Shown here: positions 40,211-61,337 of the stretch, in pieces | How the letters are laid out: every line of letters begins with the position of its first letter | How positions within the stretch are numbered: the stretch's first letter is position 1 | Assembly (NCBI RefSeq): GCF_988243305.1 | Contig: NZ_OZ547136.1 | Strand: one strand, 5' to 3' | DNA: 64,000 nt | The notes under the pieces: generated by a model | What the model saw: the letters and a program-made list of their open reading frames with translations, nothing else | Told to the model about the DNA's origin: nothing | The model's database searches: none | Translations under genes and position numbers: made by a program

Positions 40211-41725
40211 GTGTATTTGATATCGTATGTGGCAACAAAAAATGGAGTTACAATCTTGAAAGTAAGCGAGTTATCTAGCCAAATTGGCCGACTTTACGGC
40301 TTAAACAACATCAACATAATTATGGGCCGAAACGGTGCGGGAAAAAGTCGTTTCCTTCGTGATATCGAACAAACAATCAGCCAGAACAAGCAGCAATTTT
40401 ATGTCCGGTATGTAAGTCCAGAGCGAGCAGGATCGTTCAAGCGTGATGGCACCGTCCTCACAAATATGAGCGACAACCCCGAATGGCTGAGGCACACTCG
40501 GGCAGTTAATCAGGCAAGCAACTTCAAAGCTGCATCGGCTATGCTATTTCGCGAGGCCGAGACGCTTTACTTACGTCGACTTGCCAATACTCCGGAAATT
40601 CGAACTGATCTAACGCGAAACTTTCAGACAGACCGATTAAGTAAAATTAATCAGCTTCTCACTAACATTTCGCTCGAGATGGGTAATGTCGATTATGAGT
40701 TTCGATCACTTGTAGATGGTCAGATTATTGATCCGGCCCAAATCAGTAGCGGTGAATCGGAAGCGGTTGCATTAGCCGCGGAAATCATCTATTTCTTCGA
40801 CACAATAGATCCGGAGAAATTCAACGTACTCCTCCTCGATGAGCCTGATGTACATCTGCACCCCGACCTCCAAGCTAGACTGGGCAAGCTGATAATCAGT
40901 ATGCTCGACGAATTTAGAACACACGCGAACAGTATTGCCATATGCTTATCCACCCATAGTTCCCCGCTCGTCTGTTCTCTTGCCGCCTCCCCATATGTAT
41001 CAATCGGCACGAAGAGCTTTGCAGTGAATGAAATCTCATTGATACCGGCCAGCGATGAACTTCGAAAGATTGCACCATTCTTCGGGCACCCCCTATCGCT
41101 TTCTCTTAGCGAAGACGCTGCATTAATTTTGGAAGGAGAGGACGACGAACGAGTCTGGCAACAAGCGGCCAGAACATCACAGGGTCGAATAAAAATCTTT
41201 CCCGTACTAGCAGGTAGCGTAGATCAACAGAGTCAACTTGAGGATTTTTGCGTAGACCTCCTTAGTACACTCTATGACAATCCAATCGCCTTTTCCCTTC
41301 GTGATGGCGATGGTGTAATCAACGAGTCGCTTGAACATCGCCTACCTCTTAAACGCTATCGCTTACGATGCTACGCTATCGAAAATGTTCTTTTGACTGA
41401 TTCATGCCTTGCAGTAATGAATGTTACATGGGTGGAATTTGTAGACGCAGCCAAAAAATGGGTTGAGGATAATCAAACACACTCCGACATAGCGTTGATT
41501 GCAGAACTAATGGAATCGAACGACCGATTGCGTCACAAGAAGATCAAGAAAATCCGCCAACTCGTCTGTGCTATTGTTGAGTGTAAAAAACCTTGGGAGG
41601 TAGTAGTTGGACAAGCAATCGGGGCATTGACCAGAGAAGACCTTGAAAACTCGAATATGTTGATCGATTTTCTTGGAGGAGAGATGGTCAGCGACGTCAT
41701 CTTCAGGGACGCAATAAACCCATGA
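40211..41725 (+). CDS. ABC-type (AAA_21-like) ATPase with C-terminal TOPRIM/DUF4435-like acidic region; candidate OLD/PARIS-like anti-phage nuclease (accessory)
   Basis: Walker A GRNGAGKS, signature-like ISSGESEA, Walker B/D-loop LLLDEPDVHLHPDLQ, H-loop LSTHS; C-terminal about 200 aa carry LEGEDDE and RDGDG acidic motifs; no TM segments; probable true start TTG at 40256 preceded by ggag. Confidence 0.55.
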   Translation: MYLISYVATKNGVTILKVSELSSQIGRLYGLNNINIIMGRNGAGKSRFLRDIEQTISQNKQQFYVRYVSPERAGSFKRDGTVLTNMSDNPEWLRHTRAVNQASNFKAASAMLFREAETLYLRRLANTPEIRTDLTRNFQTDRLSKINQLLTNISLEMGNVDYEFRSLVDGQIIDPAQISSGESEAVALAAEIIYFFDTIDPEKFNVLLLDEPDVHLHPDLQARLGKLIISMLDEFRTHANSIAICLSTHSSPLVCSLAASPYVSIGTKSFAVNEISLIPASDELRKIAPFFGHPLSLSLSEDAALILEGEDDERVWQQAARTSQGRIKIFPVLAGSVDQQSQLEDFCVDLLSTLYDNPIAFSLRDGDGVINESLEHRLPLKRYRLRCYAIENVLLTDSCLAVMNVTWVEFVDAAKKWVEDNQTHSDIALIAELMESNDRLRHKKIKKIRQLVCAIVECKKPWEVVVGQAIGALTREDLENSNMLIDFLGGEMVSDVIFRDAINP

Positions 41726-41740
41726 GAATGACCTGATACT

Positions 41741-42136
41741 ATGACCACGATTGATCCGCCCTCATGGTATCAGTATTTATTTTATAACCCGCCTCTCAAT
41801 ACACCAAGAGATTGCGGTAAAGTGGAGCAGCATGATTACCAGCTTTATCTGGCGATAAATGATATTGAGCATACGAAAACGAAAGCAATGTCATCTAAGA
41901 CCAATAGTATCTGCGAGCAGTTCCATAAAACGATACTGAACGAGTTTTATCAGGTGACGTTCCGCAAAAAGTTATATGATGATCTTGAAGCATTACAATC
42001 GGTTCTTGATGAATGGCGGGTTCACTATAATAATGAGCGAACCCATCAGGGAAAAATGTGCAGTGGCCGAACGCCGATGGAAACGTTACTTGATGGAAAG
42101 CACATCTGGGATGAGAAAAACTTAAGCCAGATGTAA
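41741..42136 (+). pseudogene. remnant of a DDE (rve integrase-core) transposase, C-terminal fragment
   Basis: 131-aa ORF containing ...TNSICEQFHKTILNEF...WRVHYNNERTHQGKMCSGRTPMETL, the characteristic C-terminal segment of rve-type transposases; no N-terminal HTH or full DDE triad. Confidence 0.6.
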
Positions 42137-42229: not shown

Positions 42230-43000
42230 ATGGAACCAGAGAAATTTGCTGAAACTGCAATAGGATTTACCAAAAGCCCTCTTGGTATCATTGCACTCTT
42301 TATTGTTCTCGTTTATGGATTTGCCTCTTTCGTCGTTGGCTTTGGTAATGGCTTATCAGAGCATATAGCTCCCCTTATTTATTTCATGGTTTTCTTTCCT
42401 GTCATTGTGTTTCTTGGCTTTCTCTGGCTTGTTGCGAAACATCATAATAAGCTTTACGGGCCGTCAGATTTCAAAGATGAAAATAATTTTTTAAGAGCGC
42501 AAATAGCTACAGCAGCATCATTGACCGCCGCCACAGCAAAACAGCCTGAAAATAGTGCAGGGGTCACTGAAAGCCAACTGCGAAAAATCGTCAACGTTGT
42601 ATCCAATGCAAAACGGCAGAGTAAGCATGAAAAATGGCGAAATCGTATTTTATGGGTGGATGATCGACCAGAAAATAATGTTTACGAAAGACAGGCATTT
42701 GAGGCACAGGGAATAGAGTTCGCTTTAGCTCTTTCAACTGACGAAGCCTTAGAATTGTTAAAAACAAATAAGTTTGCAGCTATTATTTCGGATATGGATC
42801 GCAAAGAAGGGGCGCAAGAAGGTTATGTCTTACTAGAAAGATTACGCGCAATGGGAGACAAAACTCCTTTTATGATCTATGCGTCCTCAGATCTACCAGA
42901 GCACAAGAAAATGGCGAGAGAAAGAGGTGCAATTGGCTCCACTAATCGAGCAGAAGAACTCTTTCAAATTGTCATGGGTGCGATTACCAATGGCTCATAA
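42230..43000 (+). CDS. membrane-anchored stand-alone receiver (REC/CheY-like) domain protein (accessory)
   Basis: ATG preceded by gagga; two predicted TM helices near the N-terminus; C-terminal about 120 aa align by eye to CheY (ILWVDDRPEN / ISDMDR / TPFMIYASS); AT-rich codon usage. Confidence 0.55.
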   Translation: MEPEKFAETAIGFTKSPLGIIALFIVLVYGFASFVVGFGNGLSEHIAPLIYFMVFFPVIVFLGFLWLVAKHHNKLYGPSDFKDENNFLRAQIATAASLTAATAKQPENSAGVTESQLRKIVNVVSNAKRQSKHEKWRNRILWVDDRPENNVYERQAFEAQGIEFALALSTDEALELLKTNKFAAIISDMDRKEGAQEGYVLLERLRAMGDKTPFMIYASSDLPEHKKMARERGAIGSTNRAEELFQIVMGAITNGS

Positions 43001-46538: not shown

Positions 46539-47945
<1,407 letters not shown>

Positions 47946-48004
47946 GATGCGCCAGCATCGCATCCGGCACTGGCTCCCAGGCCACGCCAGATGCGCCATG
48001 CTGG

Positions 48005-51000
48005 TTACTGGAAGCAGGTCACCAGACCCGGTTTATTCATTAGCGTGATACTACAATCCTGTGCTCCAGTGCCTTCGTCCATTCCACACTGTTGAGAGGA
48101 CAAATAAGGAAAACTTGGTGAAGACGGCCATCCCAGTGAATTAAAAACAGTGTGCAACAACTCTAATTCATTGTATGTCGGTGCATTTTCTATGCTGCCA
48201 CACTGCCTTGCAATATCCCATTTACTGGCATCAATGATATGTGCAGAAGCCCAGTTTTCGTAGTTAATAATCGGTGAGGATACGGGATTAGCCCCGGACG
48301 GCAATTCTGTCGTTAACAACGGTCGATGTAGCGATTTACCATTCACCACTACAGTGTCTGCCATATGTCCCCAAAAGTGCGCCGAGGAAACATTCGGGCT
48401 GGTTGGTACCGTAAAAATAGCGTCCAGCGTGTCTGTCGCGGAAGCGTAATTAGCCAGAGTAACCGTCAGTGGCGTTTTATAACCAGGGGTATTATCCTGG
48501 CGGAGCGTAAAACTTGCCGTCCCATCCGCGCCTGTCATGCCACTAATGGTATTACCGCTTTCACTCAGCGTAACAGCCGAACCAGATAACGGCTGAACGA
48601 TGAGATCGTCCATCGCCACCACATCACCATACAACGTCGCCCCAGCGTTACGCGGCGATGCATCGCCACGTTTCAAAGTAAATTCCACATTCGGTACCGT
48701 ATTCCCGGCGCTGTCTTTCACCGTCACGGTAACGGGCATGGCTTCGCCTTTTTTCACTTTCGCCGCCTGAATAGCTGCGTCAAACGCTGTTGAGGTCAGT
48801 GTGACGCTGGAAACCGTTGCGCGCGCAGACACCAGACACGCCTGATAAGCGGCATTACCATTCAATGTCGTTGTGCCATCTTTCATATTGAGCGACTGAT
48901 TTTTACCATCTGTAGTCTTATCCTGCGCCCACCAGTAATAATAAACTGACCAGCCAGTTTCCGTCGTAAGGGTGTTATTGGGATAACGTTGATACAGTGA
49001 CTTCATATCGCTGAGCAACGGTTGCCGGGCTTCCTCACAAGGGCTGAGGCTGGCATTTGCTTTAGTGGTTGACGAAAAATAGGGCCAGTCCTCATTATTG
49101 TTATTGGTTTTATTTACCCCGGAGGTCGATGGCAGCTCCTTCCACAATTTCGGTCGTTCAAAGACGGTTCCATTTGCCGCTGTCACCGTTTCTGGCATAT
49201 GACCCCAGTAGTCGGCATCCTGGGCGTCAGGGCTGGTGACCACGGTAAATATCAGGTCCAGGTTTGACGTGATCTGCGGATCTTGTGCAAGCGAGACCGT
49301 AAACGGCGTTGCCAGGCCGGTGGTGGCGTTTTGCGTAACATTGAACGTCACTGTGCCATCACTGCCGGTAAAACCAAGCCATTTTGCCGTATCCTGAGCA
49401 AAGGAAATACGGGTTGCTGTCGGTGTGACGACATCTACAATAAGATCATCTGCCAACGATGAGGGCCTAATTCCTGAACGACTTTTCGCCTGCGCCCGCT
49501 GAAGCGTCACGCCCTCACCACTCACCAGGTTGCCATTTTGGTCTTTTACTGTCACGACTAACGGGATTGTCTCGCCCTTTTTCGCCGATGCCGAAGGTGT
49601 GCCGCCGTTACTGGCGGTTTTCGTCTCATCAAATGCTACTGAAGTCAGGGTAACGCTTGACGGCTTAGAGTGAGGCTGTGCCAGGCAGAGCATTAGAGCA
49701 ACCGGAGAGAGTGCGGATGATGCTCGTCCCGTGCTTAGGTTAAAGACCTGATAATACCAGGAGCTACCATTGGAGTTAAGTAATTCATAAATCCACCAGT
49801 TTCCTGACGCTATCGGCAACCCCAGATCTTTCGTTAACGCTCCGTTTGGGTGATCGTCATATAACCCCTGCAATTCGCTGAGGCGCGGTTGATATTCCAG
49901 CGAACAATCTGCCGTCGCTTTTTGAGTACTATATATATATGACCATGTCTCATTATTACCGTTTACCGAGCTCCCCGTAGTCGCTTCCGCTGCCAGTAAT
50001 GGGCGCTTGAAGGTCACGCCTGCCGAACTGGTAAACGTTTCCGGCATATGGCCCCAGTATTTCGCTTTTGGCGAATCCGGGCTGGTTATCACCGTGAAAA
50101 TGACATCCAGCGTGACGCTTTTCGAGGTATCGCGCATGAGTTCTGCGCTGAGCGGCGTTGACAGCCCATAACTGCTATTCTGGCTGACCTCAAACGTAGC
50201 TTTACCATCGCTCCCTGTCTTCAGAAGAGCCTGCGTCCCATCCCCATACAAGATTGACGTTACCCCAGTAGGTTCCACAGGTATGATGGTAAGATCATCT
50301 GCAGAGGCATCGTACGCAGCTTTAGCGCGGTTCAGCGCAGTCCCTCGTTTAAGGTTAAAGCTGGCACCTGGCAGTGGATTGCCTGCGCTATCTCGCACCG
50401 TAACCGTCATCGGGATAACCTCTCCCTTCTTCGCTGTTGCGCTGGGCCTGCCATCATTGCTGGCCGTTTTCGTTGCATCCTCCGCCGTTGAGGTCATTTC
50501 AATAGAAGCCGCCTCTGGATGAGGGTTTACCAGGCACAGCATTAATGCCGAGGTGGTTGAAGACGCTCTTCCACTTGATCCATTTAACAGATAAATATAT
50601 TGATCGTACCAGTTACCCGCATATGCCACCATGTCGTAAGCCCACCAGTAGCTATTTACCGGAATACCCAGATCGGTCTTTATCGCACGACTTGGGTGTT
50701 CGTCGTACAATGCCTGTAGTTCGCTTAACAGTGGTTGATAATGTACATCGCACCCGCTTTTATCGATATCCCCCTTTGTTGCCGATCTCAACACGGCCCA
50801 CTCTTCATTGTCTTCTATAAACGACTGGCCCGACGATCTTTCAGCAGAGAGTAAGGGGCGTTTGAAGGCAGTACCAGAACGCGTAGTGAACGTTTCCGCC
50901 ATATGCCCCCAGTAACTTGCCAGGGGGGTATCCGGGCTGGTTATCACGGTAAACATCACGGGTAATTTGTTGGATTCCAGGCTCGACTGATAGGCCTGAG

Positions 51001-54000
51001 CGTACACATTGGTTACCAGGCCTATAGAATCATCCTGCTTTACCGTAAACGTGGCTGTCCCGTCTGCACCTGTCACCGCATAAAGGGAGATTGATGGAGT
51101 ATCCACTCTTGCCGACGTTCCCGCAGCGTTGATTACAGAGATAGTTCTGTTCGACAACTGTACATTCTGGCGATTTGTCGATCCTTCACGTTTGAGAATA
51201 AACGGAACATTTGGTACGACATTTCCCTGCGCATCTTTTGTCACCACGCGAATCACCGCGTCGTCACCTTTTTTCCGTTTTAGTGCGCTGAGGGTTTCGT
51301 CAACTTTGACAAATTGTGTCGCATCGTTCGCTTCAACAATAATGTGGCTGGTCACCGCCACTGGGGTAGCCCGACAACTTAGCAGTCCTATACTGCTTGA
51401 CATGACCTCCGTTCCATCACCCGTTTTTAACGAAACCGCTTTAAAATTAAATGTTTGAGTGTAATAGGCAACAACCGTACTGGAGATATAGGCGCGTGAT
51501 ACAGGCCATCCCGTAACGTCATGTATTGGCACGTAACCTTCATCGGCATACAGTGACTCCAGCTCACTTTCAATCGGGACATATCCTGCACCGCAACCAT
51601 TTACAGATGTGTTGTTCGACTGGTCCGGCGAGAACAGTGACCAGCTCTCTCCATCTTCCTGAAAAGAGCTTCGACTGGTTGTAACGGAAAGCTCATCTTG
51701 CAATAACGGTCTTTTATAAATAAGCCCGCCTGCACCGGTCATCGTTTCGGCCATATGCCCCCAGAATTTTGCTTTAGGGGTATCGGGGCTGGTTATCACC
51801 GTAAAGACTACCGGAAGCATTGATTTTACGTTATTATCTGTATCCAGCATGGCGGTCAGTTCGGTTTTTAAACCCGTGGTATTGTCCTGTTTCAGTGCAA
51901 GTGTTGTCGTACCATCTGCGCCGGTAACGCCATAAATCAGTGCTGTTGTTGAGGAAAAATTACTCTGCGTGTTACCCCAGGCATCCGTCACGATGAGCGC
52001 GCCTGCTGTCACCGTTGTAGACGCATTTGCCCGATTGACGCTAAGGTTACGTTTAAGCGTAAACGCGGTATTTCCCACCGGGTTACCCTGCGAATCTTTA
52101 GTGGTCACGCGAACCACGACTTCTTCCCCTTTTTTCGCTTTGACAACATTATTCGTACTGTCAAATTTTGTGGGGTCCGCAGCCTCAAGAACGATTTGGC
52201 TAGCCTTGACGATCGGCGTCGTCTGGCAGGTAAGCAGTTCTTTTGTGGCCGATGGAATTATCGAACTGGTGCCTGAACTGAGATTGACGGCCTTGAAGTC
52301 ACGCTGTTCCAGACTACTGCTGGCTGTCGTGCTGGTAAGGTAACTTGAGGCGACGGGCCAGCCCTGAACCGTTTTCATCGCATTGCCACGGTTGGCTTCA
52401 TACAATGACTCCAGCCCGGCCTGAGAGGGAACATATTCACTACCACAACCATTAGAGGATGTGCTTGTCGCCTGAGTTTGGGTAAATTGCGCCCAGTCCT
52501 CATTATCTTCTGCAATCGCTGTTCGACCCGACGTACTGGATAACTCTTTCAACAATAATGGGCGTTTAAAGACCGTTCCATCCGCAGCCGTCACCGTTTC
52601 CGGCATATGCCCCCACATTTTCGCTTTATTGCTGTCCGGGCTGGTGACAACGGTAAAAATGGTATCGAGGGTCGCTTTTTTCGTTGTGTCTGAATAGAGC
52701 GCAGCGGTCAGCGACGTTTTTGTGCCATGGGTATCCGGGCGGGTAATAGTGAGAATTTTAGTGCCATCGCTGCCGGTCATCGCGCTGTATGCTGCGGCGG
52801 TATCATTGAGCGAAGTTTCATCCGCCAGGCCACTATTGATCACAACCGGCGCAACCAGCGCATCACCGCTACCGGCAATGTGTTTTTCGTTTGATCGTGT
52901 ATAACCATCGCCACGCTTCAGGGTAAAAGGCATATCACCCAATGGATTGCCCTGAGCATCTTTTACCGTCACCTTCACCTGTAGCGTTTCGCCTTTTTTC
53001 AGCTTCGCCGCATTTGCTGCCGCGTTCCACTGCGCCGGGTCCACCACTTCCAGCGTAATGCTGCTGGCAGGATTGTTAGCCGTCGTCAGGCAACTGACAT
53101 AAACCGCCGTGCTACCGCCAACGGTCCGCGCGCCATCGTTGAGGGCTATGGTGTAGTAATGCGGCACCTGATCCGCGGGCGAACTGCTCCAGTAGGGCTG
53201 ACGCTGCGTTGGCCAACCGTGTACCGTTTGAACGGCGTTACCGCTGTTAGCATCATAGAGCGCGTTAAGCTGGGAACGGCGTGGGAGCATATTGGCACCA
53301 CAGCCACCTTTACTGGTGCTGGAAGTGTTGGCCTGGCTAACGCGCGACCACACTTCGTTATTTTCCGTTAATGTGCCGTCCGGGCTGGACACTTCCGCAG
53401 CCAGCCGGGGTCGGGCAAAGGTTAATGCATCGACGGTAATCGTCTCATCCATATGCCCCCACATCTGCGCGCCAACCGCATCCGGACTGGTGAGCGTAGT
53501 GAAAATCACATTGTAATTAACAGTATTGGGAATATAGGAGTTTACAGGCGCAATATTCAGCGGCGTCGCTAAGCCCACACCTTGCGGTTGCTTAATTTCA
53601 ACAGTAGCAAAACCCTGCGCATCCGTAGTACCTGCATAGACTAAAGACGGTTGCGATGTTCCGTAGAGCGTGCCATTCATCTCGATTGCGCCGCGGGTTG
53701 GATCATCGAAACCCGTGGTCTGCCCCTGACGATTTTTCCCCATATCTTTCGTGATGGTGAACGCGGTATACGGCACGGGCGCATTATTCAAGGCATTAAA
53801 GGTGCGTACCGTCATGGTAATCGTTTCACCCACTTTAGCCTGCGCTCTGCTGCTTGTGGAAACATCATGATCGGTGTTCGCAGCAATCTGGGCGACCATC
53901 TCATTGCCCGAACAAGAAAGGTAGTTTTGCTTAAAGCCGGAATAGGTGTCGATGTTGCCCGTGGCCAGGTTCACCGACGCGTGCGACGTCTCTTCCACCG

Positions 54001-56047
54001 CACTAAGATACGCTTTTTGCAACGTTGGCCAGCCATATTCGGTGCCGATGACATTGGCTGGATGTGCGGCAAACAAACTGTGCAATGAGCTTTGGCTCGG
54101 AATATGACCTAAACCACACTCAGCCTGCATACTGCTATTCTGATCAAACAGCGCCCAGTCTTCGTTATTTTCCCGCACTGCTCCCAGTTCGTTGTCGGTT
54201 TCATCCGCCAGCCGTGGGCGTTTAAAGATATTATTCGCTTCAATAATGCCTAACATATGTCCCCACATCCGCGCTTTGTCGGAATCAGGGCTGGTGATCA
54301 CCGTAAAAATAACGTCTTTCTCATCCGAGGCGGTAAAATCACTGCGCATTTTCGCGGTGATGTGTGTTTTCACCCCCACGCCGCCTGGCTGGGTCAGCGT
54401 CAGAGAGGCCTCTCCGTTAGCATCAGTGATCCCTTCATAGGTATGGGCGTCAACTTTGCGAACGTTACTGCCACCATCAATTTGTACCGGGTGCGTCTCC
54501 CACGCAGCGTCAGTTTGATTCTTACGGTTAACACCGTCATCCAGATGCAGCGAAAAGTAGTAGTAAGCCAGCGGCTGATCGTTGTTCTTGCTATCGGTAA
54601 TCGTCAGGCGTAAAGAAGCCTCTTCCCCCACCTTTACTTTCATCGCTTTTATCGTCGAATCATAACTGCCCGGCGTCAGTACCAGCTTCGGTTCAACATC
54701 GGGCGCTTCTTTATCGACACAGCTCACAATAAACGTCGTATCGTCCGGTTTTTGCGCTTCGCTGCGGTTCGAAACATCCGCCGCATGGTGCTGGCCACTC
54801 ATCCCCGCCAGTGATGACCAGTAGAAATTACCCTGCATCGGCCAACCAGCCACATCCTGCACTGACGTTGGCACCACCGTCGCCAGCGCACCGAACTGAC
54901 GCATTCCGGGCAAAATGTCGCAATGTTTATCCGCGCCGCTCCAGGTAAAGGTGGACCAGGTTTCATTGTGATCGTTAACCGTACCGTTTTCATTATCGAC
55001 TTCCGCCGCCAGTTTTGGTCGACTAAAAGTGTAATCACGGGCCTTCAGCGTATCGGGCATATGACCCCACATTGTAGCCTGCGGGACATCCGGGCTGGTG
55101 AGGACGGTAAAGATCACTGCCGTTTCACTGGCCTGAGCAATACCCGCGAGGCTCGCGACCAACGGCGTTTTTACACCAAGGCCGTTGGCCTGGGTGACCG
55201 TAACCGTGGCAACACCATTCGCATCGGTAGTACCACGATATTCCGTCGCGGTGGTGGTTAATTCGGTCGTGCCCAGTTTTACCGGCGCAGTATTGTTCAC
55301 TACACCCTGGCGGTTTTCAGCATCTTTGCGTTTGATAACAAAAGGAATATTCCCCACAACATTACCGACGCAATCTTTGGTGGTGACCGTTAACGTGATA
55401 CTGCCGCCAACCGTCGTTTTCGCCGCACCGGAGGATTCGTCATAGCCCGCGGCGCTGACGGAAATAAGGTCACCCTGCGCGGGCGCAATCTTCAGCGTCA
55501 CTTTCTGATCGGCGAGCGTCAGAACACTTTCATAGGGATAGCCCGTCGAGGTGAGTAAATATAACAGCGGCATGGTCTGTTGGGGATCAGGCTGCGCCCA
55601 GGCGACCAGCGAACGCCCGGCAAGTCCCTGAGCGCAAAACGAGCGATCTGCGACTGGCTGTGGGTCCAGTAAGGTGTCCGGCGTCGCGGCATCCGCCCAA
55701 ACTAAAGATACTGTCGGTGGCGTTTGGTTTTCCCAACGTGGGGTGGAAATGATATCGCCTTCTCTGTCTTGCGGATTGGTGACGAGCAATTTAGAGACGC
55801 TAATATCCGCGCTGAATTCACTCGGTTTAGCGGTAAACGCTACCTCATGCGTCTTTGCAGGATCCAGAAAGACACTGCCCTGGTAGACGGGTATGCTGGC
55901 ACTGTCGGCGGTGGGCACGGTACCGTTAAATTCGCCGACCGTATCTGAAGAGTCTTGCCATGCAGATTCTGCCCATGACCGCCCAGGCAGCATTGCGCTT
56001 ATCAGCAATGCGCATAACACAAGGATTTTATTCAGGGTCAGGGACAT
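48005..56047 (-). CDS. giant repetitive surface protein, RatA/RatB-like (Ig-like plus lectin-like repeat modules); CS54-like island
   Basis: 2680-aa uninterrupted ORF with a signal peptide and nine repeats each containing (I/V)FTV(I/L)TSPD...(M/Y/F)WGHM...RP.L...NE.W...CG...L..LY...GWP....YW; no frameshifts seen. Confidence 0.8.
48100..55700 (-). repeat. intragenic tandem repeat array, about 9 units of roughly 0.80-0.86 kb
   Basis: Plus-strand string catatgNcccca (reverse complement of the WGHM codons) recurs at about 48362, 49196, 50045, 50900, 51752, 52604, 53450, 54254 and 55057, giving spacings of 803-855 bp, all multiples of 3. Confidence 0.8.
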
Positions 56048-56167
56048 GACAGAAACTCCACCGGTTGTTAAACGGACGCTTGTCGCATCAACATATTTTG
56101 CTTAATCCGGGATTAAGCAAAATATGCGGAAACAGCATTCCCTTGCGGGAATGCTGCTGAGTACGCG

Positions 56168-57145
56168 TTATTTGTGTTTGTAAATAATGTGAAGTTTGTA
56201 CCCCTGTACCCCGTCGCCGTTGGTCGGGATGGTAAGAGCTTCTTTACCATCGCGCGCAGGGCCGTTAAGGTTGGTTCTGGCGTCTTCGTTGGTCGCAGGG
56301 ATGACCAGATTGTTATTATCGAAGCTTGAGTTAACGATACCACCCGAGGTGCCGAGCTGTTGGCTACTCCCAGAAAGTACCCAACGGAAATCATAATTGG
56401 CGGTAACGTCAGCATCGGTACCCGCATCAAACTTGCCGTTTTTGTTCTCATCCGAGTACAGTTTGGCCACGTAGGTTTTGCCAAGTTCGATTGGCGTGCT
56501 GCCGTTGATAAGGTTGATACTGGTACCATCAACAAAGATGGCGACTTTCAGGTTCTGGTTAACCACCGGCCCTGGCGCAACGTTGTCGCTGTCGCTTCCG
56601 CCGCCGCTGGCAGTGGAAATGTCATAAAGATGCAGCGCAGTCCCGACGTTTGGCGTACCGGTCTGCGTGGTTGGCGTAATTTCAATACCGATATAACGAC
56701 CACGGTCGTCATCGGTAAGAGTGTAACTGGTCACCTTCGTTGCCAGCTCTTTTGGATCGTTACCCTGAGCGTCCTTGTAGCTCATCCAGCGGATAGTATC
56801 GATAGTTTTCGCGTTATCGCCCAATACCCCAAGATCCACGTCGCCTTCGGTATCACCAATTTCCCAACTTACGGTTAATTTATCACCCGAGTAAAGACGC
56901 TTGTCCGTTTCACTGCCTGTCGGGCGAGCGCCTTTTAGATCAGAAGTCAACGTTACATGGTCGGCATCTGTCGTAGCGCTTCCCCCTTCCGAATAGAGCC
57001 ACGGAATGGTTCCCTGGAAAATATTGGTTTCGCCGCTGTCGACCCAGGCGCTTTCTTCCGCCAGCGCCACAGGTGCCACACAATAACCTGCCAGTGCCAG
57101 CGCCAATGCGATCCGGGTCAGACCGCGTCTTTTATCCTGCTTCAT
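56168..57145 (-). CDS. SinI-like secreted protein (paralogous to the SinH passenger C-terminus)
   Basis: 325-aa ORF with a signal peptide; C-terminus LVIPATNEDARTNLNGPARDGKEALTIPTNGDGVQGYKLHIIYKHK parallels the SinH-like C-terminus; N-terminal motif EESAWVDSGETNIFQGTIP resembles the start of the giant protein. Confidence 0.65.
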   Translation of the reverse strand: MKQDKRRGLTRIALALALAGYCVAPVALAEESAWVDSGETNIFQGTIPWLYSEGGSATTDADHVTLTSDLKGARPTGSETDKRLYSGDKLTVSWEIGDTEGDVDLGVLGDNAKTIDTIRWMSYKDAQGNDPKELATKVTSYTLTDDDRGRYIGIEITPTTQTGTPNVGTALHLYDISTASGGGSDSDNVAPGPVVNQNLKVAIFVDGTSINLINGSTPIELGKTYVAKLYSDENKNGKFDAGTDADVTANYDFRWVLSGSSQQLGTSGGIVNSSFDNNNLVIPATNEDARTNLNGPARDGKEALTIPTNGDGVQGYKLHIIYKHK

Positions 57146-57199
57146 TGATGCTCTCCTTAATGAACCTTCAGCGACTGGCCGACTGGCCTTACGCCAATC

Positions 57200-59407
57200 T
57201 TATTTTTTGGTATACAGCACGCGTAAACCGTATCCCTGCAAGCCATCTCCCGCTTGTGCGCCATAGGTTTGCGCTGCTTCGCGGTTAGTGGCCGGAATCA
57301 CAATGTCCTCATTGGAAGTGTTCGCCTGTGCACCCACTTCACCATTGATGCTCTTGCCGGTAAATTCCCACTTGTAGTCGTACTGCGCCATCTCTTCGTC
57401 AGTCAGTTTTTCGACCTGCTGGAAGACACCGTCTTTATTGCTGTCACGCCACAAAACAAATCGATAAGTGTTGTTGAGCGGCAGCGGTTCTTTATCTTTA
57501 CCTATCAGGTTGCTGGGTTTAGCTGCCCCCACACGATAGATAAATGCATTTAGCCCACCAATTTCTGCCCCGAGGAAAGTGACATCCACATAGTTACTGT
57601 CGTCGTAGGGCGCAGCTTTTGCTTTCCAGCGATAGGTGCCGGGTAAGGTACTGGAGAGGGTGACAGTGCCCTTTTCTTTATCTTGTTTAGCGATAAAAAC
57701 GCAGGGGTTGTCGGTCGAGCAAGGCTTGTTGGTTAACGTCACTCGTTTGTCCTGCGCGTCGTAAAGCTGCGGCGTGAGGTTATCTTCCGGCAGCGCATCG
57801 CCATTGCGGTCGGTGTTATCGCCAAAGCTGTCGGTTACATCGAGATCCATCACCACACCATCAACGCCATCTGCCTGAGCGCTGGCTTCGTGGCTGTGGT
57901 TGTTCTCTTCCGGCACGTTCGCGATGTTATTAACAATCAACTCTATTTTACGGTCCTGCTGAACGGTGATTTCCACCACGCCAGAGTTCTGTCGGTTGCC
58001 CTTTTCATCTTCCAGTGCCAGACGTACTCGCCAGGTATTGAGTTTTTCTTGTTCGGCTTTGTCAGAGCTGTACTGCCAGGCGGGCAGCACCAGGTTCCAG
58101 TGGTTATTGTTACCCTCTGTCAGGGTATTCTCTTTGATAACCGGCATAACCAACGTGCGGGCAGCATTGTTTTTCGCCTGCCATGACGCAGCGACAATTT
58201 TGTAGTGGTGGTTGATAAGCGCGTTAATGGTCCACTTACATTTTTCCAGCCCGACGGCCGCTTCGGGAGTGTCCTTAATGACGCACTCAGGGTGCTCGTT
58301 GGTGGCATCCGCTTTTAACCACAGGGTGACATCAAGCGGATCTTTTTCTTTGTATTCCAGAACAATAAAGTTATTACGCTCAACAAAATCATGACGACTG
58401 CCCATCAACGAGTGAGCCGCTTTCACTTTATCGCTATCCAATTGATCTTTTAGCGGAACGCCGAACTGATAATTAAGAGTGGCATTAATGCTGACATCGC
58501 TGTTATCTCCGGTCCCCGCTTTATAGTCCGCCCCAACGGTTAGTAATGGCACCGGTTGATAATTCAGTCCAAGTGTTACCGCGTAGGGATCTTTCTCCAA
58601 ATTATCCGTACCAAAAAGGGCGACTTCATCGCCGTAATATTGCTCGAAGACAACTTTGCCCCCCAGTTGCGGATAAGAAGGTAACCAGGCTTCGGCACGA
58701 ATATCCCAGCCGCGCGCAGGGCGTTCTTCATAAAAGCCGAAATCTTCAGAGTCTTTCCAGTCAGAAAGCGGATGATAATAGTTGCCAGAGAATTTTAAAT
58801 AATCAGTCCACGCTTCGCCGCCTAAACCTAAACGGCGATGTCCTCGGGTAAAATCATAATCATAAAATACATTTCCACCCAATAACCATTCATTAAAATT
58901 ATGTCTTACCCCAAGACCAATATTCCCGATTGTACGATCTTCTTTTCGTTGCGCAGAAAATTGACTGAAATAAACAGTGGTTTGATTATCGTACCAGGGA
59001 ACAAAATAATCGATGGAACTGCCATCCAGATCGCCGCCCTGGCCAATGGAGAGGTTCGAACGGACCTTACCGTAGGGAGAGAGAGTGTCTTCAATATAAG
59101 ATTGTGCGGTTGAGATGATTTGACTTTGCAGATAGCTTCTGGCCTGAGATTCCAGCGCCTCAGGGGTCAAGTTTTCAAACCCTTGCGTGGCGGAGTTGAT
59201 GACGTAATCGGCTCCGCGCTCTTTCAGCGATTTACCCTTGTTGGTTTGTTCATCCCGCTGTGCTGCCTGGCTACCTAAATCAGGTAACGATTCGTTTTGC
59301 TTAACATTTATCTCTGGTGCCGCGAAAGCAGCACCAGAGATAAATGTTAGAATAATACAGCGTTTCCATCGCAGCATGCACTTTCCCTGTGACAATGATA
59401 CAGTCAA
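57200..59407 (-). CDS. intimin/invasin-family inverse autotransporter, SinH-like
   Basis: 735-aa ORF; probable start at the internal Met (MLRWKRCIILTFISGAAFA signal peptide); N-terminal half has alternating beta-strand patterns typical of the intimin/invasin barrel (GLGVRHNF, LNYQPVPLLTVGADYK), followed by a passenger domain. Confidence 0.75.
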   Translation of the reverse strand: MTVSLSQGKCMLRWKRCIILTFISGAAFAAPEINVKQNESLPDLGSQAAQRDEQTNKGKSLKERGADYVINSATQGFENLTPEALESQARSYLQSQIISTAQSYIEDTLSPYGKVRSNLSIGQGGDLDGSSIDYFVPWYDNQTTVYFSQFSAQRKEDRTIGNIGLGVRHNFNEWLLGGNVFYDYDFTRGHRRLGLGGEAWTDYLKFSGNYYHPLSDWKDSEDFGFYEERPARGWDIRAEAWLPSYPQLGGKVVFEQYYGDEVALFGTDNLEKDPYAVTLGLNYQPVPLLTVGADYKAGTGDNSDVSINATLNYQFGVPLKDQLDSDKVKAAHSLMGSRHDFVERNNFIVLEYKEKDPLDVTLWLKADATNEHPECVIKDTPEAAVGLEKCKWTINALINHHYKIVAASWQAKNNAARTLVMPVIKENTLTEGNNNHWNLVLPAWQYSSDKAEQEKLNTWRVRLALEDEKGNRQNSGVVEITVQQDRKIELIVNNIANVPEENNHSHEASAQADGVDGVVMDLDVTDSFGDNTDRNGDALPEDNLTPQLYDAQDKRVTLTNKPCSTDNPCVFIAKQDKEKGTVTLSSTLPGTYRWKAKAAPYDDSNYVDVTFLGAEIGGLNAFIYRVGAAKPSNLIGKDKEPLPLNNTYRFVLWRDSNKDGVFQQVEKLTDEEMAQYDYKWEFTGKSINGEVGAQANTSNEDIVIPATNREAAQTYGAQAGDGLQGYGLRVLYTKK

Positions 59408-59586
59408 AAATAAGCTTTAATATTGTATCCCTGATTATTCAGAAAGGCATGTCATAAAGAATAAATATATTCTTAATTATTTAAATTAGTGATTTCACTC
59501 AATTACATTAGTTATTCCACTAATAACAGATTGTTTTACCATTCACATATTAAATATAAATGATAAAACAATATATTCACATGATA

Positions 59587-59802
59587 TTAAGCAATAACAA
59601 ATTCAACGCGTTTTTTAGATATTAAACCGTGCCCATGTTGGCAAAAATAGTCCACAGCACCACAAGCTTTTAACACTTGTAACGGCTGATGACACTCAGG
59701 GCAAAGTGCCTGGACGGTAAAGTCTTTGTCGCAAGTTGCACAGTGGGCAGTCTCGCCATTGCGTTCGAGAGGGGTTTTGCAGATTGGACAGTTGAGTGCC
59801 AT
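59587..59802 (-). CDS. yfgJ: zinc-ribbon protein YfgJ
   Basis: 71-aa ORF with two CxxC pairs (CPIC...CATC and CPEC...CQHGH). Confidence 0.8.
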   Translation of the reverse strand: MALNCPICKTPLERNGETAHCATCDKDFTVQALCPECHQPLQVLKACGAVDYFCQHGHGLISKKRVEFVIA

Positions 59803-59864
59803 AAATACTCCTCGCGTGTTATTCGGTTTCCCTCTCCGTGTGGAAAGGGAAACCAGATAAGTGA

Positions 59865-61337
59865 TTACTTACTTTTCTTGATATGCTTCATCAGGCGCTT
59901 ACGCTTGCGCATCTGGGTTGGCGTCAGGGTATTACGCTTGTTCGCATACGGGTTTTCCCCTTCTTTGAACTGAATACGAATCGGCGATCCCATTACGTCC
60001 AGCGATTTGCGGAAGTAGTTCATCAGGTAACGCTTGTAGGAATCAGGCAGGTCTTTCACCTGGTTACCATGAATCACCACAATCGGCGGGTTATAACCAC
60101 CGGCGTGGGCATATTTCAGCTTCACACGACGACCGCGTACCAGCGGCGGTTGGTGATCTTCAACAGCCATCGTCATGATGCGCGTCAGCATAGAGGTCCC
60201 CACACGACGGGTGGAGCTGTCATACGCTTCACGCACTGATTCAAACAAGTTACCAACACCACTGCCGTGCAAGGCAGAGATAAAGTGCACACGAGCAAAA
60301 TCGATAAAGCCCAGACGGAAGTCCAGCGTTTCTTTCACCTGCTCTTTCACTTCCTGGCTCAGGCCATCCCACTTATTCACCACAATGACAAGTGAGCGCC
60401 CACTATTGAGAATAAAGCCCAGCAGGGAGAGATCCTGATCGGAAATACCTTCGCGGGCGTCAATCACCAACATCACCACGTTGGCATCTTCAATGGCCTG
60501 CAACGTTTTGATTACCGAGAATTTCTCTACAGCATCGGTGATTTTGCCACGTTTACGTACGCCAGCGGTGTCAATGAGCACATACTCACGTCCATCGCGT
60601 TCCATTGGAATGTAGATACTGTCACGCGTCGTACCAGGCATGTCATAAACAACAACGCGCTCTTCACCAAGAATACGGTTAGTGAGTGTAGACTTACCTA
60701 CGTTCGGACGACCCACAATCGCCAGTTTGATCGGCAGACTTTGCGGGTCGAAGTCGTCTTCCTCTTCTTCTTCGCCGTTTTCTTCTGCTTCAAATTGCGC
60801 CCAGTATTCGGCGTCTTCGTCGACTTCTTCTTGCGGTGCGAGATCTTCCATCCACGGCAGCAGCACGTGCTCCAGCAGACTTAATACGCCACGACCGTGA
60901 GACGCGGCGATCGGGTAGATTTCCCCTAAACCAAGCGAGTAGAAATCAACCACTGCCTGATCGGGATCCAGACCGTCAGTTTTGTTTGCCACCAGGAAGG
61001 TCGGTTTTTCACGGGAGCGCAGATGTTTAGCAATCGCTTCATCCGCCGGCATCAGGCCCGCGCGCGCATCCACCATAAACAGTACGACGTCCGCTTCTTC
61101 AATCGCCAGCAGCGACTGTTCCGCCATGCGGGTTTCTACACCGTCTTCTGTGCCATCAATCCCGCCGGTATCAATGCAGATAAACTCACGGCCTTCAATT
61201 TCTGCACGACCGTACTTACGGTCACGAGTCAGACCCGGGAAATCCGCAACCAGCGCATCTCGGGTGCGAGTTAGACGGTTAAATAACGTGGATTTTCCTA
61301 CGTTAGGGCGCCCGACAAGCGCGACCACAGGTACCAT
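59865..61337 (-). CDS. der: ribosome-associated GTPase Der (EngA), tandem GTPase domains
   Basis: ORF 59865..61376; start at the internal Met ([17 protein letters not shown]); two G1 motifs GRPNVGKS plus a KH-like C-terminus; 490 aa. Confidence 0.9.

Follow-up and report, generated by a model that had tools for sequence, protein, structure and literature searches.

Between xseA and yfgJ, the window (the whole 64,000-nt stretch analysed, from contig NZ_OZ547136.1) carries three co-directional minus-strand genes (Table 1), and the open reading frame listing agrees exactly with the 2680, 325 and 735 aa assigned to them in the preliminary description. All three proteins exceed their NCBIfam thresholds, the curated family cut-offs by which NCBI names proteins: 5385 bits against 3870 for the RatA-like protein (NF011844), 337 against 165 for the SinI family (NF040711) and 1483 against 999 for SinH (NF033423). 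In a 99.7%-identical locus, the corresponding RefSeq labels are sinH, SinI family and adhesion domain-containing protein.

Table 1. Features of the xseA–der interval, with positions in the window
Feature	Position	Strand	Basis
xseA	46569-47945	+	ORF
3′ end of xseA, divergent allele linked to the locus	47792..47945	+	blastn, XseA length
REP-like inverted pair, long hairpin between the convergent xseA and ratA-like genes	47946..48004	.	motif pair and RNA fold
ratA-like gene, 2680 aa, ATG	48005..56047	-	ORF, NF011844, Pfam
RatA-like nine tandem BIg21 + InvE_AD modules	residues 214-2680 (48008-55408)	-	Pfam pairs
RatA-like N-terminal domain (~190 aa), including the SinI-shared module (~residues 27-104)	residues 27-213 (55409-55969)	-	
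RatA-like signal peptide	residues 1-26 (55970-56047)	-	
Hairpin 2 of the sinI-ratA intercistronic element	56091..56127	-	RNA fold, comparison across loci
Hairpin 1 of the sinI-ratA intercistronic element	56131..56158	-	RNA fold, comparison across loci
sinI, 325 aa, ATG	56168..57145	-	NF040711
sinH, 725 aa, type Ve inverse autotransporter	57200..59377	-	NF033423, Pfam, PDB matches, RefSeq start
AT-rich region upstream of sinH, presumed promoter/regulatory region	59378..59586	-	sequence, GC, TRF
yfgJ, zinc-ribbon protein, 71 aa, divergent allele linked to the locus	59587..59802	-	ORF
der	starts 59865, after yfgJ		

The CS54-like identity proposed at the outset is borne out by these thresholds, by synteny with Salmonella and by a published E. 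coli cluster, and the segment is very probably the sinH-sinI-ratA adhesin cluster of E. coli, which corresponds to the three-gene core of the Salmonella CS54 island and occupies the conserved xseA/yfgJ-der position. The Salmonella enterica locus reads der-yfgJ-sinH(730)-sinI(319)-ratA(1865)-ratB(2435), the CS54 order at the same junction. With CS54 (shdA-ratB-ratA-sinI/sivI-sinH/sivH) the window shares the der-yfgJ-sinH-sinI-rat order and the junction, but it has one rat gene instead of two and no shdA between rat and xseA, so that the core of the island is present and the whole island is not; S. bongori also has a single rat gene (2135 aa). Comparison with the Salmonella proteins gave identities of 72.5% for SinH, 45% for SinI, and 41% to RatA and 49% to RatB for Rat. 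The cluster is intact and already described, and public annotation pipelines name sinH-sinI-ratA correctly. It has been published from ExPEC, UPEC and APEC strains under the names ‘ila’ locus and IatB (SinH is IatB), as derived from CS54 and linked to urinary tract infection (UTI) and ExPEC virulence (PMC12928451, PMC12525524, PMC9937491, PMC6714894), the latter having been noted in the preliminary description for E. coli counterparts of CS54; it is also treated in PMC4943183. The published cluster has the same genes, order, xseA/yfgJ position and protein families, while the window represents a different allele.

SinH is a type Ve inverse autotransporter, with an N-terminal 12-stranded intimin/invasin-type β-barrel and a C-terminal passenger of ~380 aa. 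The length of 735 aa holds for the maximal ORF (57200-59407, TTG start) but not for the real protein, which almost certainly starts at the ATG at 59377 and has 725 aa, since RefSeq uses this start in a 99.7%-identical genome and residue 11 of the 735-aa ORF is where the match to the NCBIfam SinH profile sets in. A Sec signal peptide (residues 1-19) is followed by the barrel at residues 63-336 (73-346 of the 735-aa ORF; Pfam IAT_beta, E = 9.7e-108). This barrel is homologous to those of invasin and intimin, as matches to their PDB structures show (4e1t, E = 1e-73; 4e1s, E = 7e-65), though SinH reaches only 253 bits against the intimin cut-off of 1400. No LysM domain, Big_1 or lectin tip was found in SinH by Pfam. 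Published work places SinH at the cell surface and credits it with promoting biofilm formation, adhesion and invasion, bladder colonisation and bloodstream fitness; it also describes SinH as an ExPEC vaccine antigen and sinH and sinI as co-transcribed. The region upstream of sinH has a GC content of ~0.43 and a 22-nt tandem repeat at 59481-59528 (TRF); promoter calls in it did not rise above chance expectation.

SinI comprises a signal peptide (~1-29), the N-terminal module shared with Rat (~30-113) and two β-sandwich domains at ~64-175 and ~195-325, the latter two as seen in an AF2 model. Pfam gave no domain in SinI, which has no barrel or anchor of its own, and Foldseek returned generic Ig/FN3 matches only. 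Judging by BLASTP (SinI 218-325 against SinH 631-725, 36% identity, E = 4e-13), the last SinI domain is homologous to the C-terminus, or tip, of SinH. Membership of ZirU_fam was considered and rejected, the weak match (1.3e-7) scoring 32 bits against a cut-off of 100.

The giant protein aligns to NF011844 (‘RatA-like protein’) over its full length, residues 1-2680 to positions 1-2683. The label ‘RatA/B-like’ therefore stands in the sense of this separate RatA-like equivalog; as RatA or RatB proper the protein misses both equivalog cut-offs. Nine TSP[DN]...WGHM motifs recur at a spacing of 268-285 aa, and no membrane anchor or barrel was found by Pfam. The PDB entry 5n40, a ‘putative invasin’ which we take to be InvD, matches residues 208-422 (E = 5.7e-30), that is, one module. 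By their sequence, the modules, each an Ig domain (BIg21) plus an adhesion domain (InvE_AD), are homologous to the C-terminal receptor-binding end of the Yersinia invasin-type proteins InvD/InvE, the source of Pfam InvE_AD. In these proteins the module is single and sits at the tip of a barrel-anchored inverse autotransporter, whereas the RatA-like protein has nine copies and no barrel. InvD binds antibody Fab (PMC6555100). Nine tandem units of ~280 aa, whose number varies among alleles from 6 to about 10, could raise the suspicion of collapsed or expanded repeats in the assembly, or of a decaying pseudogene. Such an origin of the 2680-aa ORF can be dismissed with near certainty: the DNA repeats are just 60-77% identical even in the best-conserved 74 nt, TRF finds no long tandem array, the frame is uninterrupted, the protein fits its profile end to end, and many genomes finished independently share the same length and colinearity; at least 20 complete genomes, 99.4-99.7% identical, are 100% colinear over the 15-kb region.

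SinI and the Rat proteins were found to have a ~85-aa N-terminal module in common, an observation that may be new. The two N-termini align with an hhalign probability of 88.6% (E = 2.7e-6), and the motif W-x4-9-T-x2-3-[IVFL]-[NQE]-G-[TS]-x-P is present in all 21 Rat and SinI proteins and in none of 8 SinH proteins; in the module alignment, W, G, T, P and D..GD do not vary. Searched with a profile of the module, a set of 1.84 billion proteins yielded only 66 representatives. Single-stretch matches with the first motif start at ~residues 12-70, mostly 23-40, and the complete matches are SinI-sized or Rat-type, many others being short fragments. In multi-stretch profile matches, the D-x-EGD part resembles cadherin/VCBS-type Ca-binding repeats. 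AF2 confidence over the motif is low in the SinI model and thus uninformative.

The sinI-ratA spacer contains a conserved, covarying two-hairpin RNA, which may also be new and for which Rfam gave no matching family. Hairpin 1, a GC-rich stem of 10-12 bp followed by UUUCC, is terminator-like with a weak U-tract; it is present in 10/10 loci with compensatory changes in 5/10 pairs, and a strict terminator scan did not flag it. Hairpin 2 has a 17-bp stem with a conserved core, UUGCUUAR...YUAAGCAA, and covarying outer pairs, followed by an invariant GUUGA. Its core pattern occurs once per sinI-rat spacer, except in Leminorella, which is one base off the exact core, with no further occurrence in the window, where 0.01 would be expected, or in the fetched loci. 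The two hairpins would act on read-through into the 8-kb ratA message, either lowering or processing it. At the other end of the ratA-like gene, GCCGGATGCG and GCCAGATGCG are inverted relative to each other and the RNA folds into a hairpin of -36.9 kcal/mol (z = -3.5), which is likely a transcript end or stabiliser for both xseA and the ratA-like gene.

In K-12 MG1655, xseA (b2509) and yfgJ (b2510) lie directly side by side with a 4-nt overlap, as stated for K-12 in the preliminary description and as is also seen in an empty-site strain; relative to K-12, the window has ~11.6 kb extra (47946-59586). Divergence from empty-site genomes extends past the three genes, into the xseA 3′ end and yfgJ. 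In blastn against the empty-site strain KOr021, identity is 97% as far as 47791, a point inside the xseA 3′ end; similarity then stops and returns at 59864. XseA measures 458 aa in the window, compared with 456 aa in strains with an empty site. The linked yfgJ is 79% identical in DNA and 66% in protein to the K-12-type yfgJ of KOr021, while its product shares 76% identity with the Salmonella protein and 96% with that of another E. coli carrying the island.

These comparisons bear on the origin of the locus, which the preliminary description took to be an insertion and which may be read as a recently inserted, horizontally acquired pathogenicity island. In favour of this reading, about two thirds of complete E. 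coli genomes lack the locus, among them K-12, B strains and O157, the stretch upstream of sinH is rich in AT, the literature uses the term horizontally acquired island (PMC12525524), and the E. coli alleles are as divergent as those between genera (SinI 45%), which suggests import of foreign alleles. We nevertheless consider a recent insertion rather unlikely, and ‘inserted’ probably has the polarity wrong, the locus being syntenic across five genera. Salmonella bongori, Citrobacter, Kluyvera and Pseudocitrobacter all have the layout yfgJ-sinH-sinI-rat-xseA, which suggests an ancestral enterobacterial locus that was lost in K-12-type strains; in S. enterica, the der-yfgJ-sinH-sinI-ratA-ratB side agrees with it. 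Neither an integrase nor a tRNA nor a flanking direct repeat was found at the locus, GC is 0.50-0.55 across most of it, like the surroundings, the linked yfgJ is nearer to that of Salmonella than to the empty-site gene, and a frequency of 98-100% has been reported for it in phylogroups B2, F and G (PMC9937491). Taken together, synteny, absent scars, GC, yfgJ and phylogroups fit a locus that was present ancestrally, had its alleles exchanged through homologous recombination in the flanks, and was deleted in A/B1/E-type lineages. About 589 of 5426 complete genomes carry the window-type allele, defined as at least 95% identical in the DNA of the barrel, whereas most sinH-positive genomes (1104, including ST131) have an allele just 80-90% identical to it; across E. 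coli alleles, Rat has 7 or 9 modules.

How the three products might work together can be approached from their architecture. After Sec export, SinH would be inserted by BAM and thread its passenger outward via its own barrel. SinI and RatA, without an export or anchoring device of their own, may reach or stay at the surface in a SinH-dependent manner, on the model of ZirS and ZirU with ZirT. Their common N-terminal module could be a shared recognition or tethering element; it may also simply be a homologous small β-domain, with no targeting role required. A translocator:substrate hypothesis has already been put forward, with the analogy to Salmonella ZirT-ZirS-ZirU, likewise an IAT barrel protein followed by barrel-less signal-peptide proteins resembling its passenger (PMC4943183, PMC6714894); the weak ZirU_fam match of SinI speaks for this analogy. 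ZirT-dependent secretion of ZirS has been demonstrated (PMC2270342), while SinH-dependent secretion is putative here, and zirTSU has no giant Rat-type partner.

With the same gene identities, SinI and RatA could instead be independent of SinH, either periplasmic or released via T2SS, vesicles or lysis, and their clustering would reflect co-regulation or common descent. Counting against a SinH-partner mechanism, IatB mediates biofilm formation without the downstream protein (PMC6714894), and the presumed plugging of an occupied inverse-autotransporter barrel poses a mechanistic difficulty for trans-secretion, as discussed in PMC4943183; single-gene deletions, moreover, differ in UTI phenotype (summarised in PMC12928451). 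SinH is also far more conserved within E. coli (85-87%) than SinI (45-68%) or Rat (53-67%), and therefore shows no obvious co-variation with its proposed partners, the C-terminal domain excepted. Independence is a possible reading but, to us, a doubtful one. The sinH-sinI-rat genes are adjacent and in the same order in 10/10 loci from 6 genera, the Leminorella trio lying at a different chromosomal site, and this kept adjacency and order supports a functional linkage. SinI has one domain in common with SinH and another with Rat, neither SinI nor Rat carries its own anchor or barrel, and ZirTSU offers a precedent. Under SinH-dependent display of SinI and RatA, the outcome would be a multi-protein, multivalent adhesin.

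The preliminary description had placed about 11.6 kb with three co-directional minus-strand genes between xseA and yfgJ, and the ORF listing and the comparison with K-12 agree on this content. In K-12 MG1655, as in the empty-site E. coli strain KOr021, xseA and yfgJ adjoin with a 4-nt overlap, and the DNA additional to K-12 spans 47946-59586, which confirms the boundaries. A 15-kb region is colinear with many finished E. coli genomes at 99.4-99.7% identity, and there RefSeq lists xseA, an adhesion domain-containing protein (8043 nt), a SinI family autotransporter-associated protein, sinH, a zinc-ribbon protein and der. The locus is real, its interpretation as CS54-type is right, and it is already known and correctly named by standard pipelines. 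The length of 735 aa first given for SinH is correct for the maximal ORF from TTG but almost certainly not for the protein: RefSeq places the start at an ATG equivalent to window position 59377, for a product of 725 aa, and residue 11 of the longer ORF is where the match to the SinH profile NF033423 begins. Coordinates are collected in the table below.

Features of the sinH-sinI-ratA-like locus and of other segments of the window
Feature	Coordinates	Strand	Remarks
Segment between yfgI and guaA	39884-43294		~3.4 kb
ATPase ORF	40211-41725		504 aa
Integrase-core fragment	41741-42136
Receiver-like protein	42230-43000		256 aa
xseA	46569-47945	+	flank of the trio
xseA 3′ end in island haplotype	47792-47945
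REP-like units	47946-48004		inverted pair
ratA-like ORF	48005-56047	-	2680 aa, ORF listing
Shared module, RatA-like	55735-55969	-	residues 27-104
sinI-rat spacer RNA	56048-56167	-	120 nt; two strong hairpins, -49.7 kcal/mol, z = -6.3
sinI ORF	56168-57145	-	325 aa, ORF listing; 54 nt downstream of sinH
Shared module, SinI	56807-57058	-	residues 30-113
SinI signal peptide	57059-57145		residues 1-29
sinH ORF	57200-59407	-	735 aa from TTG, ORF listing
sinH upstream region	59378-59586		very AT-rich
Tandem repeat	59481-59528		22-nt unit, 2.2 copies
yfgJ	59587-59802	-	other flank; der next
yfgJ and yfgJ-der spacer in island haplotype	59587-59863

Family assignment was made against the curated NCBIfam thresholds, which are equivalog cut-offs for SinH, RatA-like, RatA and RatB, and all three proteins lie above the cut-off of a family. 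SinH scores 1483.2 bits against NF033423 (cut-off 999), with residues 11-735 of the ORF covering profile positions 1-730 of 730; SinI scores 337.2 bits against NF040711, the SinI family autotransporter-associated protein (cut-off 165), with residues 7-322 covering 2-299 of 299; and the giant protein scores 5384.6 bits against NF011844/PRK15316, RatA-like protein (cut-off 3870), with residues 1-2680 covering 1-2683 of 2683. The giant protein falls below the equivalogs for RatA (NF011843, 2127.7 versus 3700 bits) and RatB (NF011842, 2247.1 versus 4079 bits). By these scores it is a Rat-family, paralogue-level relative and neither RatA nor RatB itself. An assembly artefact had been considered for so long and repetitive an ORF. 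The nine repeat units of the gene are spaced 804-855 nt apart and even their most conserved 74 nt are just 60-77% identical, TRF finds no long tandem array in the gene, and the reading frame is uninterrupted along its whole length; repeat collapse or expansion is therefore ruled out for practical purposes, and the ORF is genuine.

Salmonella has the same gene order, sinH-sinI-rat, at the same der-yfgJ/xseA junction. In the S. enterica locus, fetched via its SinI, the order is rodZ-ispG-hisS-yfgM-bamB-der-yfgJ-sinH(730)-sinI(319)-ratA(1865)-ratB(2435), and in S. bongori sinH-sinI-rat is followed by xseA at the far side. The similarity to CS54 proteins that the preliminary description had called for is detected, with identities to Salmonella of 72.5% for SinH, 45% for SinI, and 41% (RatA) and 49% (RatB) for the giant protein. 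The complete CS54 set includes shdA and two rat genes, whereas the window has no shdA and a single rat gene and thus represents the CS54 core. Unlike in the ZirTSU system, SinI is no member of the ZirU family (32 bits, where 100 would be required). SinH likewise stands apart from intimin and invasin, with 253 bits against the 1400 required by intimin_all, and it lacks their LysM, Big_1 and lectin-tip traits, Pfam giving IAT_beta only. In the literature, the E. coli sinH-sinI-ratA genes form the 'ila' cluster, derived from CS54 (PMC12928451), and the part of that paper that cites Shea et al. 2022 describes deletion of the cluster as attenuating in murine UTI. IatB, a SinH orthologue with a SinI-like gene downstream, promotes biofilm (PMC6714894), sinH and sinI are co-transcribed (PMC12525524), and SinH, an ExPEC-associated vaccine antigen, has a reported prevalence of 98-100% within phylogroups B2, F and G (PMC9937491). 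Published work describes SinH as surface-localised and as promoting adhesion, invasion, biofilm formation and colonisation.

SinH carries the signal peptide MLRWKRCIILTFISGAAFA/APE, followed by an N-terminal inverse-autotransporter beta-barrel (Pfam IAT_beta at residues 73-346 of the long ORF, E = 9.7e-108) homologous to the solved invasin/intimin barrels 4e1t and 4e1s, and by a C-terminal passenger of ~380 aa in which Pfam finds no domain. For E. coli, this passenger is reported to be surface-exposed (PMC9937491). SinI has a signal peptide and, in the Pfam search, neither a domain nor a barrel. Its C-terminal domain is 36% identical to the SinH C-terminus (BLASTP, E = 4e-13), a homology long noted for Salmonella (PMC4943183). 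The AF2 model of SinI has two beta-sandwich domains (~64-175 and 195-325, pLDDT ~90 for the latter) and low confidence in the first 62 residues; Foldseek against the PDB retrieves nothing beyond generic tandem Ig/FN3 structures, of which none reaches E <= 0.001, and a sequence search of the PDB gives no match. Within the SinI signal peptide, A19-G20-Y21-C22, P25 and A29 are invariant in 23 homologues whose identity is otherwise 44-84%, which is unusual for a signal-peptide core. The invariant AGYC was considered as a lipobox and rejected, because Tyr occupies position -1.

The RatA-like protein shows the Rat-type arrangement: a signal peptide (residues 1-26), an N-terminal domain (27-213) well conserved across genera at 67% mean column identity, and then nine tandem pairs of BIg21 (formerly DUF824) and InvE_AD (formerly DUF823) modules. 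An AF2 model of the N-terminal 230 aa from a seven-sequence alignment was uninformative (pLDDT 45). Among Rat alleles, it is the central modules that vary, while 1-4 and the last one are conserved. One module matches PDB 5n40, a 'putative invasin' that we take to be InvD, at E = 5.7e-30, in an alignment that extends across the Ig domain as well as the adhesion domain. Judged by this match, each module is the end with which a Yersinia invasin-type protein binds its receptor, presented ninefold and with neither barrel nor anchor.

The preliminary description regarded the trio as inserted between xseA and yfgJ, and this reading is not favoured by its distribution. Of 5426 complete E. coli genomes, every one has the flanks and 1751 (32%) have sinH barrel DNA at a coverage of at least 80%; by identity, 222 of the positive genomes stand at no less than 99%, 367 at 95-99%, 56 at 90-95% and 1104 at 80-90%. 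The site is empty in K-12, B strains and O157. Other E. coli alleles that we fetched share 85-87% of SinH with the window, divergence being concentrated in the last ~125 residues, 45-68% of SinI and 53-67% of Rat, which has 7 or 9 modules. The yfgJ-sinH-sinI-rat-xseA layout recurs in S. bongori, Citrobacter, Kluyvera and Pseudocitrobacter, Leminorella has the trio at another chromosomal location, and linkage of the three genes is invariant in the loci examined. As for the classical marks of a mobile island, annotation gives neither integrase nor tRNA, and we found no direct repeats at the boundaries and no Rfam hits. Outside the sinH 5′ region, GC content is an ordinary 0.50-0.55. The linked YfgJ resembles that of Salmonella (76%) more than that of the empty-site strain KOr021 (66%), and similarity to KOr021, elsewhere 97-98% identical, stops at 47791 inside xseA and resumes at 59864. 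Together, the synteny, the lack of mobility marks, the GC content, the kinship of yfgJ and the divergence of the flanks argue that the locus is probably ancestral to this group of Enterobacteriaceae, with alleles exchanged by flanking recombination and deletion in K-12-type lineages, rather than recently inserted. Sequence comparison suggests that 'island' is a misnomer: the locus looks like an old one among enterobacteria, with deeply diverged alleles and loss in particular lineages.

Several further observations concern the locus and its surroundings. The island haplotype takes in the 3′ end of xseA, the whole of yfgJ and the yfgJ-der spacer. Citrobacter has an MFS/PTR2 transporter gene between der and yfgJ (L011, 5618-7159) and Kluyvera has DUF2543, a Cys/Met-metabolism enzyme and an oxidoreductase there (L012, 4654-7277), so the der-yfgJ junction itself varies between genera. 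In two loci sinH is split into two ORFs, namely E. coli allele L006 (7690-9945, 654 + 64 aa) and a Pseudocitrobacter metagenome contig (L013, 7755-9944, 234 + 459 aa). Only 59 nt separate the ratA-like stop from the xseA stop, and the REP-like units between these convergent genes fold back on each other as a long hairpin, at -36.9 kcal/mol (z = -3.5). The AT-rich region upstream of sinH, which contains a tandem repeat, may be a regulator-binding or H-NS-silenced region. A consensus scan of 47700-60000 for promoters and terminators gave sites no more numerous than in shuffled sequence, and we claim no promoter. Elsewhere in the window, a segment between yfgI and guaA is also not in K-12; it encodes an ABC/AAA-type ATPase with generic weak matches to defence ATPases such as AriA, PtuA, GajA and PDC-M01A, an integrase-core fragment, and a protein that combines a receiver-like domain with two TM segments, for which PADLOC gives no match.

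Straight after the signal peptide, SinI has an N-terminal module of ~85 aa that is also present in all Rat-type proteins. The motif W-x4-9-T-x2-3-[IVFL]-[NQE]-G-[TS]-x-P, its W lying a few residues past the cleavage site, is present in 21/21 SinI and Rat proteins from ten loci (that of the window and nine others) and in 0/8 SinH. In the joint alignment W, G, T and P are invariant, as is D..GD ~50 residues on, and profile-profile comparison (hhalign) of SinI 32-113 with Rat 24-104 gives 88.6% probability and E = 2.7e-6. Searching 1.84 billion proteins with the module profile returned only 66 representatives. Where a match forms a single stretch and contains the first motif, it starts at about residues 12-70, in most cases at 23-40. 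Complete matches are either of SinI size or Rat-type proteins 740-2700 aa long; short fragments make up many of the others. The residues before the W change in parallel in SinI and Rat of a given locus, 'LK.G.WQ' being present in six loci and absent from four, although these loci make up about two clades and so count as only one or two events.

The sinI-rat spacer carries a second conserved element. Both of its hairpins are kept in 10/10 loci (six genera), in which SinI is only 44-68% identical. On the spacer alignment pairing holds in 97.1% of cells, as compared with 89.4% in column shuffles (the observed value being reached in 0/500) and ~40% with slid partners, and compensatory double changes occur at 9 of 28 pairs (again reached in 0/500 shuffles); the sample is limited, consisting of ten related sequences that also served to derive the structure. 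Many pairs are G-U, and the structure is therefore specific to the mRNA strand. Hairpin 1, directly 3′ of the sinI stop, precedes UUU(U)CC and resembles a terminator with a weak U-tract. The core of hairpin 2, UUGCUUAR..YUAAGCAA, is conserved in sequence and, within the window and the fetched loci, found at this position only. Rfam has nothing for the spacer at the gathering threshold, and relaxed settings return only chance matches to miRNA precursors. One E. coli allele (L005, 10967-11256) has a REP-like insert of ~170 nt in the spacer that duplicates hairpin 1. From sequence and predicted structure, the hairpins likely act in partial termination or processing, by which the amount of 8-kb rat message would be uncoupled from that of sinH-sinI. 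Hairpin 2 could also be read as a palindromic DNA operator, which is less likely because its outer pairs covary and many pairs form as G-U, which holds for the mRNA strand only. The invariant GTTGA past hairpin 2 was considered as the -35 box of a ratA promoter and rejected, since a consistent -10 box is missing in the ten loci.

SinI and Rat have no export or anchoring device of their own, from which we infer that they would depend on SinH in the manner of ZirT, ZirS and ZirU. A partnership with SinH has already been published as a hypothesis (PMC4943183, PMC6714894), barrel-dependent secretion of the partners being only hypothesised there; secretion of ZirS has been demonstrated to depend on ZirT (PMC2270342). 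We count the shared module in favour of this dependence, and in our extension SinH would recognise it and thereby export or tether SinI and Rat. The module may instead be merely a small Ca-binding beta-domain of common descent, as its D-x-EGD part gives weak repeated matches to cadherin/VCBS-type repeats. We put forward only as a speculative model, rather unlikely to hold in full, that the trio forms one multi-protein surface adhesin, with an N-terminal module recognised by SinH and a two-hairpin RNA that sets the ratio of SinH/SinI to Rat.

The clinical relevance of the locus lies in SinH, an ExPEC-associated adhesin/invasin and vaccine candidate whose Salmonella counterparts act in intestinal colonisation. 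That role is already established, and the window adds one more intact allele. The allelic diversity and lineage-specific loss of the locus bear on estimates of vaccine coverage. We found no mention of the module or the intercistronic hairpins in the published accounts that we read; they leave the overall picture unchanged and offer concrete handles on what Rat binds and how Rat and SinI exit the periplasm.
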